Origin: Shigella phage SfIV
Sequence record: KC814930
Length of the DNA stretch: 39,758 nt
Strand: one strand, 5' to 3'
The notes beneath the pieces were generated by a model. The model had not been told where the DNA came from, ran no database searches, and was given only the letters and a program-made list of their open reading frames with translations. Position numbers and translations under genes: made by a program. Positions 26,860 to 29,212 of the stretch are shown here, piece by piece. The number at the start of each line of letters is the position of its first letter. Within the stretch, counting starts at the first letter, position 1.

Positions 26860-27222
26860 TTAACGACCTGCTGCGCGGAGTTTTCCGTCAGGTTCACCGG
26901 CAAGAGTCAGTAACTGTCCCTGGTCTTCCTGCAGAATAGTCAGGCGACCACCGCGATTGACATACATCGGCGTTTCGGTGGTGTCTTCTTCGGAAATTTT
27001 CCCGCGGTTAGTCGGGCGAACATATGAGAGTTTGTGTTTGATTTTCACACGGTTCTCATCAAATGGTTCGATTTCCAGGTTGAGTGAGACCTTACCTTTG
27101 GTTTTCGTGTTCATCACACCGGAAGCGACTTCACTGAGAACTGCGCCGATTTTGGTTTCAAATACGCCGCCGTCCAGCTCCCCGATAAATGCCTGCACAT
27201 CAGTACTGCGTTCGCTAGCCAT
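26860..27222 (-). CDS. hypothetical early protein (YfdP-like)
   Basis: ORF 26860..27540; ATG at 27222 has SD gaggag upstream and gives a 120-aa protein; the upstream extension lies in GC-rich, structured, probably non-coding sequence. Confidence 0.5.
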   Translation of the reverse strand: MASERSTDVQAFIGELDGGVFETKIGAVLSEVASGVMNTKTKGKVSLNLEIEPFDENRVKIKHKLSYVRPTNRGKISEEDTTETPMYVNRGGRLTILQEDQGQLLTLAGEPDGKLRAAGR

Positions 27223-27690
27223 TTTGCTGCTCCTCATCATATCGACCCTGCAAGGCCGATTAGTTTCTCCACAAAACAGAGAAGAACACCTGCGGTGGCA
27301 GCCGCCCGGATGGATTGGGTTATGAGCCCGTCGTCCGGTGATGCTCTTCTCTGTTTTGTAAAAAGGACGGTACCAGCCGGAAGCAAGGGTACAAACTGGT
27401 ACCTCCAGGACTACACACAGCATAAAGTTGTGGTGCCGGGTGCCTCCCGGTGCCTGGCGAAGGTTGCACACCAGACGGGTGGGTATCCACAGAAGGTCGA
27501 CTGTCAGCCTCAACCTTAACCCGCGTGCGCTGAGCCGCATTCACCACAACGCTAAGGATTCTCTCTGGTTAAAAATACTTAGCTGTTATGTGCCTGCTTT
27601 TAGCCACATCAGGCGAGGTGGACCTGGTTATTTCCCAACAACAAGGATTCGGTTAATCTGGTTATCCCCAACAACGCAAAAGGAAAAGAA

Positions 27691-28125
27691 ATGTCCGGTA
27701 ATATCTACACGCTGTACAAATCCCACTGTGAAAATGTTGGAAAGTATCGGGGCATTGAAATCAGTGGGGTAGTGTCATCAGTCGAAATAAGCAAAGTGGA
27801 ATCAAGGGCAACATTACTTACTCTTCTGGACCTTGTCTTACATGAGCACCGGAAGAAATTCGGCACTCCCTATAATCAGTTGAATGGGAAAAAGGCTCTG
27901 GTTCACCTTATTCTGATGAAGCATCACTGGATGCCAAAACAGATTAATGAGATGAAATTTGATGAACTTCTTCTTTCAATTCAGGATGAACTCACACTTG
28001 ATAAAATAAGCGTAACCGCCCAGAAATTTTTAGATTATCGAGACTGGAGATCACAAATTCATCACTTTGATGATTTTGACGAAAATGAATGGGATCCTAA
28101 TTTGTCTGCACAATATCTAAAGTAA
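27691..28125 (+). CDS. hypothetical protein (AT-rich moron)
   Basis: 144-aa ORF on the opposite strand to the surrounding early-left operon, AT-rich, SD aaggaaaag upstream, two direct repeats in its upstream region. Confidence 0.55.
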   Translation: MSGNIYTLYKSHCENVGKYRGIEISGVVSSVEISKVESRATLLTLLDLVLHEHRKKFGTPYNQLNGKKALVHLILMKHHWMPKQINEMKFDELLLSIQDELTLDKISVTAQKFLDYRDWRSQIHHFDDFDENEWDPNLSAQYLK

Positions 28126-28303
28126 CATCCTGTGATAAAACCGTGATTTCCTGATCCAGTTTTTTTAAGGAGTCTATTGTTTCCTGTCGATAAGACAGCA
28201 CTTCACGAAGCTGGTTTATAGCTGCCAGCTTCTTTGCCATCCACTCGTAAATTTCCTCATTTGTGTATCCGGGCGCGACGATTTTGGGTTCTGTTTTGTG
28301 CAT
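28097..28303 (-). CDS. small protein at the first position of the leftward operon
   Basis: ATG at 28303 with strong SD gaggagg 6 nt upstream; 68 aa, predicted helical; no arginine-rich motif, so not an obvious N homologue. Confidence 0.5.
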   Translation of the reverse strand: MHKTEPKIVAPGYTNEEIYEWMAKKLAAINQLREVLSYRQETIDSLKKLDQEITVLSQDVTLDIVQTN

Positions 28304-28362
28304 TTCACACCTCCTCAAGTTATCAGTTACTTGTTGATGGGGACCAGATTGTTAAAGAGCTA

Positions 28363-28453: not shown

Positions 28454-28483
28454 TTGTTTCTCTTGGGTACATTATGTATCTCG
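28454..28483. promoter_or_regulatory. putative OL-type operator repeats
   Basis: Two copies of tgggtacatt (28454..28463, 28474..28483) sharing the GGTACA core with the palindromes between cI and cro. Confidence 0.4.
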
Positions 28484-28500
28484 TGGGTACATTGTCAAGT

Positions 28501-28525
28501 ATAAAAAAACCTGCCGAAGCAGGTT
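28501..28525 (-). terminator. rho-independent terminator downstream of cI
   Basis: aacctgc-ttcg-gcaggtt followed on the minus strand by TTTTTAT, 13 nt after the cI stop. Confidence 0.6.
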
Positions 28526-28537
28526 CATAAACATTGA

Positions 28538-29212
28538 TTAGGCTTTGATTTTGTATCTTCTTGGTTTTCCTGAGAAAATCACAGTTCCAATTATAGAGCA
28601 ATTACCGTTGATCTTAATGTAAGGCTCAGGCCAGTTTGGGTTTAACGCTTTGAGATAACGCTGTGTCCCATCTTCTATCAACCTTTTGAAGGTGGTTTCA
28701 CCTGTATCGTGCATCAATGCAATAACGTCGTCACCGTGGCAGGCTGGTACTTCAGGATCGACAAAAATCATGTCTCCCGGGCGGTACTCATCAATCATTG
28801 AATCACCTATCACCCGCAAGATATAAGTCATTTCCCCACAGGGTACAGGGCAGGGATACGTTTCTGCTGTGCTCAAATCAACCTCAGAATATCCAACTTC
28901 TTTCCATGCTCCGGCCTGTACCCATGATATGACAGGGACTAATGTGATTTGTTTATTAGTGATTGAAACATCAGGTTTTTTTGTGATGTTCGTTGTCTGG
29001 TGTTCTTGATCGAGCCATCCAACAGGCAGGTCGAAACATTTTTCGATGTGTCGTGCCATGCTGTCACCGATATTTTTAGTAGCACCATCTCCCATAAACC
29101 TGCTGGTCTGGGTTGGCTCGCGATCAATCATAGTGGCAAAGGAAGAATTCCCGCCAACACCATCTCTCAGTTTTCTGGCGTTAGACCGCCGGATGTCATG
29201 GATTGTTTTCAT
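28538..29212 (-). CDS. cI: CI-type repressor (HTH + S24 LexA-like peptidase domain)
   Basis: 224 aa; N-terminal HTH region and C-terminal S24 signature (VIGDSMIDEYRPGDMIFVD ... TFKRL); divergent from a cro-like gene across palindromic operators. Confidence 0.85.
   Translation of the reverse strand: MKTIHDIRRSNARKLRDGVGGNSSFATMIDREPTQTSRFMGDGATKNIGDSMARHIEKCFDLPVGWLDQEHQTTNITKKPDVSITNKQITLVPVISWVQAGAWKEVGYSEVDLSTAETYPCPVPCGEMTYILRVIGDSMIDEYRPGDMIFVDPEVPACHGDDVIALMHDTGETTFKRLIEDGTQRYLKALNPNWPEPYIKINGNCSIIGTVIFSGKPRRYKIKA

Follow-up and report, generated by a model that had tools for sequence, protein, structure and literature searches.

We analyzed the gap upstream of yfdP (27223-27690) in a 39,758-nt stretch of Shigella phage SfIV DNA (sequence record KC814930; the whole stretch is called the window). 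Every structure in the gap reads on the minus strand, the direction in which the early-left operon is transcribed; a preliminary description of this DNA had left the strand of its elements unassigned. Reading toward yfdP, the gap holds a conserved upstream block, a small hairpin, a five-helix domain, an unpaired linker, an intrinsic terminator, a long inverted-repeat hairpin and the yfdP leader (Table 1). The gap had been described as noticeably GC-rich, which is true of 27360-27550 (58.1% GC), a local peak inside the gap, but not of the gap as a whole (52.1% compared to a window mean of 50.3%); the adjoining moron has a GC content of 38.6%. The gap region is found at a coverage of at least 80% in 1,626 of 5,426 complete E. 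coli genomes. Its existing annotation across genomes consists of nothing, of assorted hypothetical proteins or of a frameshifted pseudogene.

Table 1. Features of the gap upstream of yfdP and of the gene that follows it (positions in the window).
Feature	Position	Strand	Basis or remarks
Conserved upstream block CCACCTCGCCTGATGTGGCTAAAAGCAGGCACATAAC	27585..27621	-	Found in E. coli, Salmonella sal3, Cronobacter phiES15 and Klebsiella phages
5'-flanking hairpin GCUAAG...CUUAGC	27551..27583	-	Sequence reading; inside the STnc100 match (starts 27580)
Predicted sRNA, ~190 nt	27360..27550	-	Predicted 5' end 27550, 3' end in U-run 27364-27360; homology to sRNA-17
Conserved five-helix 5' domain	27427..27550	-	Covariation in alignment A1, model R1
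Unpaired linker, candidate seed UUUAUGCUGUGUGUAGUCCUGG	27405..27426	-	Unpaired in minimum-energy and centroid folds
Intrinsic terminator	27360..27406	-	Hairpin fold -18.5 kcal/mol and U5 at 27364-27360
Long inverted-repeat hairpin	27271..27359	-	23-25 bp stem and two inner hairpins
yfdP leader proper	27223..27270	-	Sequence reading and fold
yfdP, first gene 3' of the RNA module	26860..27222	-	Annotation; PGAP start 27222

The hairpin ggtaccag/ctggtacc noted in the preliminary description is present at 27369-27376 / 27396-27403 and, together with the UUUUU that follows it on the minus strand, constitutes an intrinsic terminator with the stem GGAGGUACCAG / CUGGUACCGUCC (core 27403-27396 / 27376-27369). 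A generic terminator scan missed it because of its 19-nt loop, and this loop, together with a U-run of only five residues, makes the efficiency of termination and the binding of Hfq uncertain. The terminator aligns to that of the Rfam STnc100 model. Furthermore, the terminator stems of the E. coli, Salmonella (ST64B) and Cronobacter (phiES15) alleles are unrelated and a U-run comes after each of them, the replacement stems of ST64B and phiES15 still being trailed by U5-7.

The perfect 15-bp inverted repeat reported previously is real, with 15/15 matches between its arms (27271-27285 / 27345-27359), and its arms can be prolonged to 25 nt (27271-27295 / 27335-27359) with 84% of positions Watson-Crick complementary, two of the four mismatches in the DNA becoming G.U pairs in the minus-strand RNA. 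The longest perfect arm in 200 shuffles of the region was at most 11 nt, placing the 15-bp repeat far above chance, and a folding energy of -59.5 kcal/mol (z = -5.8) was calculated for the RNA 27362..27223. In an alignment of 14 variants of the hairpin (A2), 95.8% of cells were paired and four pairs were changed on both sides, while the G.U pairs were invariant. The repeat was said to end 24 nt before the start codon; the actual distance is 48 nt from the PGAP ATG of yfdP (27222), and the repeat stops 31 nt short of an in-frame ATGATG at 27239. The yfdP leader contains GGAGAAAC (27270-27263), a small hairpin (27260-27241) and the Shine-Dalgarno sequence GAGGAG (27235-27230). The long hairpin and GGAGAAAC trail the sRNA terminator ahead of several different genes; judged by these arrangements, the hairpin is tied to the sRNA terminator, not to yfdP, and may be a site for RNase III or a 5' stabilizer of the downstream mRNA. 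Two leads were discarded: an 11-nt match, GACGGGCTCAT, between the hairpin loop and an unrelated gene start at other loci was judged to be due to chance, and CPS-53 of K-12 was rejected as a model, lacking both the sRNA and the inverted repeat, with homology that begins 19 nt before yfdP.

The five-helix domain is closed by P1, which pairs 27550-27542 with 27435-27427 (GUUGUGGUG / CACCACAAC). P2 is formed by UGCG/CGCA, P3 surrounds a variable insert and is followed by P4, and P5 is the hairpin CCGGGAGGCACCCGG at 27450-27436, one of several additional GC hairpins that bear out the "further GC palindromes" of the earlier account. The P5 loop carries a GGAGG that is invariant across the alignment. 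In an alignment of 34 diverse homologues (A1), which were gathered with a fixed 22-nt pattern so that P2 was unable to vary, 96% of cells were paired and both-sided changes occurred in 15 of the 30 pairs (91 cells). None of 500 shuffles scored as high, and slid controls were paired in only 28-39% of cells. The proposed check by structure prediction and covariation across related phages thus revealed conserved paired segments with strong covariation, and the many G.U pairs assign the domain to the minus strand. The minimum-energy fold of the predicted sRNA consists of a closed multi-helix domain, an unpaired stretch and the terminator. This fold is thermodynamically unexceptional (z = -1.3), and since this score is non-significant the case for the structure of the sRNA rests on covariation.

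Promoter signals upstream of the domain are weak. A scan for the sigma-70 consensus on both strands of 27223-27700 found no promoter, and by eye we found only weak candidates, namely the -10-like GAGAAT (27563-27558), 7 nt 5' of the predicted RNA start, and CTGATG-16/17-CATAAC in the conserved upstream block, which may serve as a promoter region or fold as an RNA hairpin. As there is no convincing sigma-70 promoter and the upstream sequence varies between alleles, the 5' end of the sRNA may be processed rather than primary. The 5'-flanking hairpin is missing from Klebsiella-type alleles. RpoN binding has been reported at STnc100 copies; a sigma-54 reading of TGGC-N9-GGCA was dropped, as its spacing shifts by 1 nt between alleles.

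We next compared the element to known RNA families. At the gathering threshold, Rfam gave no match in the whole window. In a permissive search, STnc100 (RF02076) matched 27580..27358 on the minus strand only, over the full model (1-206), with 38.4 bits (E 9.3e-7) against a gathering threshold of 47 bits. The covariance-model search advocated in the preliminary description therefore supports a relation to STnc100 at permissive settings but stays below the level of family assignment. Sub-threshold STnc100 matches occur at the same place in SfV, ST64B, sal3, phiES15 and Kp4884-1. A covariance model (R1) built solely from early-left and dicB-type domains scored 91.9 bits on the window and, reciprocally, recovered the bona fide STnc100 of phage 933W (2798-2928, 95 nt 3' of stxB2; 54.3 bits, E 4e-15). 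The 933W copy has the layout seen in the window, a domain followed by an unpaired stretch and a terminator, and the model alignment, the fold and a side-by-side comparison with this copy all gave the STnc100 architecture. On these comparisons, the window domain is related to Rfam STnc100. Late-region RNAs of the STnc100 type, EcOnc27 / sRNA103 and PasD, are discrete RNAs for which Hfq binding has been reported.

A second relative is sRNA-17 of E. coli K1 RS218, a 193-nt RNA from an mEp460-like prophage that was mapped by RACE and Northern blotting (PMC7719688). The ends of this transcript were fixed from the supplementary alignment and primers of that publication, and, measured from GTTGTGGTGAATGCG to CTCTTTT, the mEp460 allele has exactly the 193 nt determined by RACE; the corresponding segment of the window is 190-191 nt, a match in ends and length that is made by homology only. 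The terminator, the inverted repeat and yfdP accompany the sRNA at this locus, and mEp460 and its relatives have 96% identity to window positions 27223-27407, a segment that takes in the inverted repeat. The identity does not extend to the body and the seed. R1 finds the sRNA-17 domain in mEp460 with 26.4 bits, so that the internal helices of the two RNAs are linked at the model level only. By sequence, the window carries another allele of sRNA-17, with a different body and a different seed. The evidence for sRNA-17 itself is modest (4 RNA-seq reads mapped), its expression and its control by ArcA were demonstrated for the RS218 allele only, and the publication reports no Rfam relative and leaves connections to STnc100, DicF and RprA unmentioned (PMC7719688). 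A search of the literature on the seed sequence, RprA-like and DicF-like prophage sRNAs and yfdP returned no description of the window allele.

When the sRNA-17 body was replaced, read counts increased from 0.5 to 47 for yfdP and from 0 to 8.5 for yfdR (PMC7719688). The rise in yfdP may be an effect of the cassette, as the mutant carried a Cm cassette and the terminator was left in place.

The unpaired linker of the window contains a further likeness, to the host sRNA RprA. Positions 27422-27409 (UGCUGUGUGUAGUC) match K-12 RprA at 14 of 14 positions, and this motif lies within RprAproc, the last 47 nt of RprA (PMC9262595). Stretches of 13-20 nt of the motif are also found in phiES15, ST64B and Qin-type prophage alleles, and the motif is present in 57 of 148 related elements examined. 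The identity is located outside the regions that RprA uses for rpoS, hdeD and the translation start of narP. The Rfam RprA model (RF00034, gathering threshold 70 bits) had no match in the window; the phiES15 allele scored 41 bits against it. Within the phage, no stretch of at least 10 nt complementary to the seed occurs elsewhere in the window, and an RNAduplex scan for in-phage targets was uninformative.

Taken together, the minus-strand gap is probably an sRNA gene of the STnc100 / PasD / sRNA-17 kind followed by a terminator and a yfdP-leader hairpin. Of the options listed in the preliminary description, it is the sRNA that the data favor: a predicted RNA of ~190 nt that ends in a terminator, carries a covarying, STnc100-related 5' domain and has sRNA-17 as its counterpart at the same locus. 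As for the underlying observations of that description, the repeat and the hairpins stand, and the distance to the start codon, the extent of GC richness and the statement on ORFs required correction.

It is very improbable that the region is instead a protein-coding gene or the remnant of one. Candidates are a frameshifted hypothetical protein that PGAP calls as a pseudogene at 27237..27547(-) and a plus-strand 74-aa ORF at 27295..27519 (mEp460 gp36), and hypothetical proteins are annotated over the region in several phage records. The claim that there is no convincing ORF was therefore too sweeping, as ORFs of 75, 49, 74 and 114 aa overlap the gap in addition to the pseudogene, but none of them has a coding signature. 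One minus-strand frame of ST64B is open for ~130 codons, and the plus-strand ORF is uninterrupted in E. coli as well as in ST64B, as its indels add up to 21 nt; however, GC-rich sequence leaves frames open by chance, and locally the frames are disrupted by indels of 1, 1 and 20 nt. The three codon positions differ little in the number of substitutions between the window and ST64B (23/21/25 in the minus frame and 15/20/16 in the plus-strand ORF), whereas the coding control yfdP gave 25/35/77 in the same comparison. Moreover, the domain occurs in 17 different lengths (126-152 nt) across the family, the ORFs have no Pfam or NCBIfam match, and the paired columns covary as RNA helices, G.U pairs included. 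Thus, by codon periodicity, integrity of the frames and family matches, we found no conserved coding frame of the kind that had been named as evidence against an RNA element. The sRNA reading has likewise to be weighed against an RNA-based processive antiterminator like HK022 putL/putR, in which the nascent RNA would bind RNA polymerase and substitute for N. In line with the earlier remark that no N-like antiterminator is evident, we saw no such gene in the interval from the pL-like promoter (28498..28471) to the element; the first ORF there (73 aa) is only weakly matched by protein families, below the curated cut-off. The element is also a conserved structured RNA immediately 5' of an intrinsic terminator in an operon that is needed after induction, and, like the HK022 put RNAs, it is a structured RNA that lies before terminators in an early operon of a lambdoid phage lacking N. 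One stretch of 22 nt has 82% identity to part of putL, but with E = 0.5; BLAST against HK022 putL and putR gave no significant similarity, HK022 has no STnc100 match and R1 has none in the HK022 immunity region. The put RNAs are ~70 nt with two stems and are situated at the promoter or 270 nt after it (PMC9378689). In contrast, the window element comprises five helices over ~125 nt and lies ~900 nt from the pL-like promoter; it thus differs from the put RNAs in sequence, model, size, fold and position relative to promoter and terminators, and neither their sequence nor their two-stem structure was found in it. Qin-type loci, furthermore, have the domain 3' of the dicF terminator, late-region copies sit inside Q-antiterminated operons, and the terminator right after the domain sets the 3' end of the sRNA-17 allele. 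With similarity missing in BLAST, Rfam and R1 searches and with a different architecture and position, the suggestion of an HK022 put-like element can hardly be sustained. The suggestion of a leader attenuator fared better in part: transcription toward yfdP does pass a terminator and a long hairpin, but no alternative antiterminator fold was found.

A more serious, though still rather unlikely, alternative is that the structured domain acts mainly in cis in the early-left mRNA, on processing, stability or translation of the next gene, the terminated RNA being a by-product and the terminator and hairpin serving to gate or insulate yfdP-yfdQ-yfdR-xis-int. Most of the 74 distinct domains are followed, without a terminator, by a Shine-Dalgarno sequence and a varied gene start 30-50 nt past the 3' strand of P1, with dicB of the K-12 Qin prophage among the genes right after the domain; as a gene without a terminator follows the domain at most homologous loci, its primary role may be cis-acting. 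The invariance of GGAGG in the P5 loop points the same way, as do the processing of DicF and its neighbours from one polycistronic transcript in which an internal promoter was not found, the absence of a clear promoter upstream of 27550 and the fact that the RS218 body replacement affected chiefly the cis-downstream yfdP and yfdR. In the window, however, the domain is separated from yfdP by ~200 nt that include the terminator and the 25-bp hairpin. EcOnc27 / sRNA103 and PasD, which share this layout, are discrete and reportedly Hfq-binding, mapping of sRNA-17 gave a discrete RNA of 193 nt, and the motif in the unpaired stretch recurs in sRNA modules and in RprAproc. Roles of the domain in cis and in trans are mutually compatible.

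If the gap is an sRNA gene, the ~22-nt unpaired stretch that follows the five-helix domain would be its candidate seed and the terminator would end the RNA. The full RNA, or a 3' fragment of ~60-65 nt trimmed by RNase E and analogous to DicF and RprAproc, would probably pair in trans with host or phage mRNAs, presumably with the assistance of Hfq. In the lysogen, the terminator would also block most upstream transcription ahead of yfdP-yfdQ-yfdR. Transcripts that read through it would fold the 15-bp repeat, extended to 25 bp, into the long hairpin, which would likely be cut by RNase III or cap the 5' end of the yfdP mRNA, and in this way the sRNA would be separated from the mRNA. A terminator and hairpin before yfdP would moreover offer an explanation in cis for the rise of yfdP and yfdR in the sRNA-17 mutant.

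A broader reading, which we put forward tentatively and consider rather unlikely, is that lambdoid prophages carry a modular early-left sRNA cassette in which an STnc100-like five-helix scaffold is combined with an exchangeable seed, a terminator of the DicF type and a hairpin of the RNase III type. Recombination would exchange the seeds, and the seed of the window, like the 20-nt Qin-like seeds, would mimic RprAproc and thereby tap into or compete with the Rcs/RprA regulon, the prophage RNA acting on the targets of RprAproc or as a decoy; the five-helix domain would be a functional module beyond a scaffold. RprAproc activates ricI in Salmonella, and the 5' end of narP is a responsive target in E. 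coli. The match of the seed to the active, processed form of RprA suggests that temperate phages may reach into the envelope-stress and biofilm regulon. The five-helix domain is also present in E. coli K-12, between dicF and dicB, where so strongly covarying an element lends itself to easy genetic study. Recognition of an sRNA gene would correct the annotation of the region and connect the so far separate literatures on STnc100 / PasD, sRNA-17, DicF and RprA.

The window element shares with STnc100 and PasD a P1-closed multi-helix domain, a GUGAAU junction and the CCGGGAGGCACCCGG hairpin, followed by an unpaired stretch of ~25 nt and an intrinsic terminator, ~200 nt overall, and all three are carried by lambdoid prophages. 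It differs from STnc100 in the P2 hairpin and in the seed; diversity of seeds on a common scaffold has been reported for PasD compared to STnc100. The window copy is located in the early-left region, between cI-proximal genes and yfdP, whereas STnc100 and PasD belong to the late region, where their published context, not shared by the window copy, has Q or stx on one side and the sialate esterase and lysis genes on the other. With sRNA-17 the element shares locus and orientation: both are early-left elements that immediately precede the hairpin and yfdP. Their initial 22 nt (GUUGUGGUGAAUGCG...) are almost the same, with the 5' end GTTGTGGTGAATGCG common to both, and the P1 closing helix and the terminator (GGUACCAG...CUGGUACC) are the same. 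In contrast, MAFFT aligned only P1 and AAUGCG of the bodies, and the seeds differ, being AGCCACUGCUUUGG in sRNA-17 but UUUAUGCUGUGUGUAGUCCUGG in the window.

Like RprAproc, the element carries the RprA motif as an unpaired part immediately 5' of a terminator hairpin. It does not resemble RprA in the 5' and central portions, where RprA pairs with rpoS, hdeD and the start region of narP, and it is prophage-borne, whereas RprA is an Rcs-controlled core gene. An Rfam search for DicF (RF00039) gave no match at E <= 10 in 27100-27800, and the seed of the window is unrelated to the ftsZ-pairing seed of DicF. The two nevertheless have much in common: both DicF, from the dicBF operon of Qin, and the window element consist of a seed and an intrinsic terminator in the pL-equivalent operon of a lambdoid prophage, and their terminators are alike (GGCGGUAUCAGUUU in DicF and GG(A/C)GGUACCAGUUU in the window). 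Both sRNA modules adjoin the same structured domain, in inverted order: in Qin the sRNA module precedes the domain, while in the window it comes after it.

The 468-bp gap between the moron and yfdP is a real RNA feature, for which a prophage sRNA gene of the STnc100/PasD/sRNA-17 kind has the best support. An sRNA had been one of several options in the preliminary description, and it is favored by a relation to STnc100, a covarying domain, a terminator and the presence of sRNA-17 at the homologous locus. The gap had also been called GC-rich, which holds locally (58% in 27360-27550) but not over its whole length (52%, against a window mean of 50%). The window is an SfV/ST64B-like lambdoid prophage whose early-left genes around the gap lie on the minus strand, with xis and int following yfdR in near-identical genomes. 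The strong promoter-like site TTGACA-16-CATAAT is likely pL, and transcription starting there would cross the moron in antisense before reaching the sRNA. The 3' ends of the 73-aa ORF and the moron overlap by 29 nt (28097-28125), and the two are thus convergent.

Coordinates of features in and around the gap between the moron and yfdP
Feature	Coordinates	Strand	Remark
LexA-like repressor	28538-29212	-	early-left gene
Terminator-like hairpin	28526..28507	-	end of repressor gene, directly before TTGACA-16-CATAAT site
Promoter-like TTGACA-16-CATAAT	28498..28471	-	consensus-like; 3' of the repressor's terminator
73-aa ORF	28097-28318	-	early-left gene
Moron, ECs1072 family	27691-28125	+	inserted against the operon
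Direct repeats CTGGTTATyyCCCAACAAC	27617-27642, 27651-27675	+	two copies, 34 bp apart
Block CCACCTCGCCTGATGTGGCTAAAAGCAGGCACATAAC	27585-27621	-	upstream of structured domain
STnc100 (RF02076) match	27580..27358	-	full model
Window RNA, predicted by homology	27550..27360	-	candidate sRNA
Stretch UGCUGUGUGUAGUC	27422..27409	-	in unpaired stretch
yfdP Shine-Dalgarno	27235-27230	-	unpaired in predicted fold
yfdP	26860-27222	-	early-left gene; yfdQ, yfdR next

Covariance-model searches and covariation analysis had been proposed as checks, and both support an RNA. Rfam at curated gathering thresholds gave no match anywhere in the window's 39.7 kb, while a permissive search gave one clear match, to STnc100 (38.4 bits, E 9e-7; gathering score 47 bits). 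The second hairpin described earlier, ggtaccag/ctggtacc, is present, and together with its UUUUU aligns to the terminator of the STnc100 model. SfV, ST64B, 118970_sal3, Cronobacter phiES15 and a Klebsiella phage each have the sub-threshold STnc100 match at the equivalent position. SfV (locus L002, 6987-7175) and ST64B also carry isrK and C4 RNA genes above Rfam thresholds in the right operon; the window is SfV-like on its left arm, yet has no match at the gathering threshold.

Loci with the element's 5' motif numbered at least 141 (21 from species-representative genomes and at least 120 from viral contigs). Adding the window copy and those of loci gathered before brings the set to at least 148 elements, containing at least 74 distinct versions of the structured domain, 126-152 nt in length. 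RNAalifold on a MAFFT alignment of 34 diverse versions yielded five helices, P1-P5, in which 96% of cells were paired and 15 of 30 pairs had changed on both sides (91 cells). This level was reached by none of 500 shuffles, and slid controls were only 28-39% paired. The frequency of G.U pairs assigns the RNA to the window's minus strand. P2 was invariant across the collected domain sequences, which says nothing either way, since P2 sits within the collecting pattern. The covariance model built from this alignment, R1, scored 91.9 bits on the window, by construction because the window is in the training set. Outside the training set, R1 scored 54.3 bits on phage 933W, at the STnc100 site 95 nt downstream of stxB2, and 26.4 bits on the corresponding RNA of phage mEp460.

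The RNA's extent was derived from sRNA-17 of E. coli K1 RS218, a 193-nt RNA defined by 5'/3' RACE and Northern blot, which is located in an mEp460-like prophage, is higher in stationary phase and is ArcA-repressed according to its authors (PMC7719688). From the supplementary alignment and primers, its 5' end is GUUGUG(A/G)UGAAUGCGCAGGC and its 3' end CUGGUACCGCUCUUUU (PMC7719688), and exactly 193 nt lie between these motifs in mEp460. The window aligns to sRNA-17 at both ends, and by homology its RNA would be 190-191 nt long. The two RNAs are alike in the 5' strand of the closing helix P1, the terminator and everything downstream, whereas the internal helices and the unpaired stretch differ; the window shares with mEp460 and many Stx2c phages only 27223-27407 (~96% identity), comprising the yfdP leader, the inverted repeat and the terminator hairpin. 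In the predicted fold, the P1-closed domain is followed by ~22 unpaired nucleotides and the terminator, the same layout as in 933W STnc100. We read the window RNA as a known kind of sRNA, present here as a new allele or seed variant.

No promoter for the window RNA passed a consensus scan, and the sequence upstream of the RNA differs between alleles. Phages of E. coli, Salmonella, Cronobacter and Klebsiella all keep block CCACCTCGCCTGATGTGGCTAAAAGCAGGCACATAAC, and just past it they have different morons inserted. A weak promoter and a hairpin, GCCUG...CAGGC, are candidate roles for the block; a strict sigma-54 promoter is disfavored by a 1-nt indel in the spacer. The direct repeats between the moron start and the sRNA, also kept in Klebsiella phage Kp4884-1 (L008), contain ArcA-type GTTA half-sites and might serve for protein binding or belong to a divergent promoter region.

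We then weighed other readings of the gap. ORFs do overlap it, and PGAP calls a frameshifted pseudogene there, contrary to the earlier statement that it holds no convincing ORF; in ST64B (L003) one frame is open for ~130 codons across the whole RNA region. The conserved coding frame named beforehand as counter-evidence to an RNA was, however, not found, and a protein-coding reading gained no support: comparing the window with ST64B shows substitutions spread evenly over the codon positions (minus strand 23/21/25, plus strand 15/20/16, compared with 25/35/77 in yfdP), indels of 1, 1 and 20 nt break the frame, domain length takes 17 different values across the family among the matches listed, and the gap ORFs have no Pfam or NCBIfam match. 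Frames stay open in a GC-rich stretch, which explains the hypothetical-protein and pseudogene annotations. In 118970_sal3 (L004, 2094-2627), the annotated yfdP-like gene has an N-terminal extension across the inverted-repeat hairpin; this extension and the ST64B frame are an annotation hazard of GC-rich structured RNA. The suggested HK022 put-like antitermination element was likewise unsupported, as we found no similarity, a different architecture and the wrong placement relative to terminators; R1 had no match in the HK022 immunity region.

A cis-acting leader role of the structured domain stays alive, since at most loci a ribosome-binding site and gene directly follow the domain, and for the window allele such a role can coexist with an sRNA. 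When a Cm cassette replaced the sRNA-17 body in RS218, yfdP rose from 0.5 to 47 reads and yfdR from 0 to 8.5 (PMC7719688). Because both genes lie immediately downstream in cis, this points to control of transcription into yfdP/yfdR by the locus. The deletion primers spare the terminator and the cassette was retained (PMC7719688); the rise, a pointer only, could stem from loss of the RNA itself, from read-through out of the cassette or from a disturbed context for termination. Caution is advisable with the expression and regulon data of that study. The sRNA-17 qPCR forward primer is also the reverse primer of the 'promoter' fragment (supplementary tables, PMC7719688), so the amplicon reaches upstream of the RACE 5' end, and sRNA-17 was covered by only 4 RNA-seq reads in LB (PMC7719688).

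The perfect 15-bp inverted repeat of the preliminary description is present where it was placed and extends to 25 nt at 84% complementarity, but it ends 48 nt, not 24 nt, before the annotated yfdP ATG. A perfect arm of more than 11 nt occurred in 0 of 200 shuffles, and the RNA containing the repeat has a folding z of -5.8, with a 23-25 bp stem around two small hairpins predicted on the minus strand. An alignment of 14 variants, taken from phages of E. coli, Salmonella and Citrobacter, had 95.8% of its cells paired, with two-sided changes in four pairs and no variation in the G.U pairs, which is moderate evidence given the limited diversity. The hairpin and the following GGAGAAAC remain joined to the sRNA terminator across differing downstream genes (yfdP, an rdgC-like gene in F1055, and others); thus, the hairpin is part of the RNA module rather than of yfdP. 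Continuous duplexes of at least 20 bp are classical RNase III substrates. Read-through transcripts could be cut at the hairpin, or capped by it, which would uncouple the sRNA from the mRNA. K-12 CPS-53 keeps yfdP-yfdT without the sRNA and the inverted repeat: its yfdO-yfdP gap (L155, 3241-3640) has TGACGG-type short repeats instead, and homology to the window reaches no farther than 19 nt ahead of the yfdP ATG.

Within the candidate seed, UGCUGUGUGUAGUC is identical to K-12 RprA, and allelic and related modules share more of the RprA motif. In the phiES15 allele the shared stretch is 19 nt, and the RprA model gives this allele 41 bits. For sRNAs at the DicF position in some Qin-like prophages it is 20 nt, AUUGCUGUGUGUAGUCUUUG, and matches the unpaired part of processed RprA over its entire length. 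Carriers of AUUGCUGUGUGUAGUCUUUG include the viral contigs L147, L150 and L070, where it lies ~60-100 nt upstream of the domain with a DicF-type terminator after it. Among the matches listed, 57 of 148 elements carry the motif, on one side of the structured domain or the other. RprAproc, the last 47 nt of RprA with this motif as its unpaired part, is present alongside full-length RprA and active by itself on narP (PMC9262595). The central region of RprA, used for hdeD and the narP start site, is not the motif copied in the window. RprAproc reportedly also activates ricI in Salmonella. We found no description in the literature of a prophage RNA with this RprA-like seed.

In Qin-type prophages, including that of E. 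coli K-12, the structured domain lies between dicF and dicB in the pL-equivalent operon; we found no description of it in the dicBF literature consulted. The K-12 dicF-dicB intergenic region (L152, 2436-2609) is a full five-helix STnc100-like copy (R1, 142 bits), with the dicB ribosome-binding site ~25 nt after it. DicF comes from a polycistronic transcript with no internal promoter found, is processed by RNase III to a 190-nt species and by RNase E to 53 nt, and has its 3' end from a terminator. By analogy, the window RNA may be trimmed in its A/U-rich linker to a 3' fragment of ~60-65 nt, and processing, instead of transcription initiation, may generate its 5' end. The terminators are alike (GG(A/C)GGUACCAGUUU in the window, GGCGGUAUCAGUUU in DicF), but the seed and terminator module precedes the domain in Qin-type prophages and follows it in the window. 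Altogether, the window sRNA is best read as combining a DicF-like terminator with an RprAproc-like seed; after it, the leader of the genes downstream has a long hairpin that is conserved.
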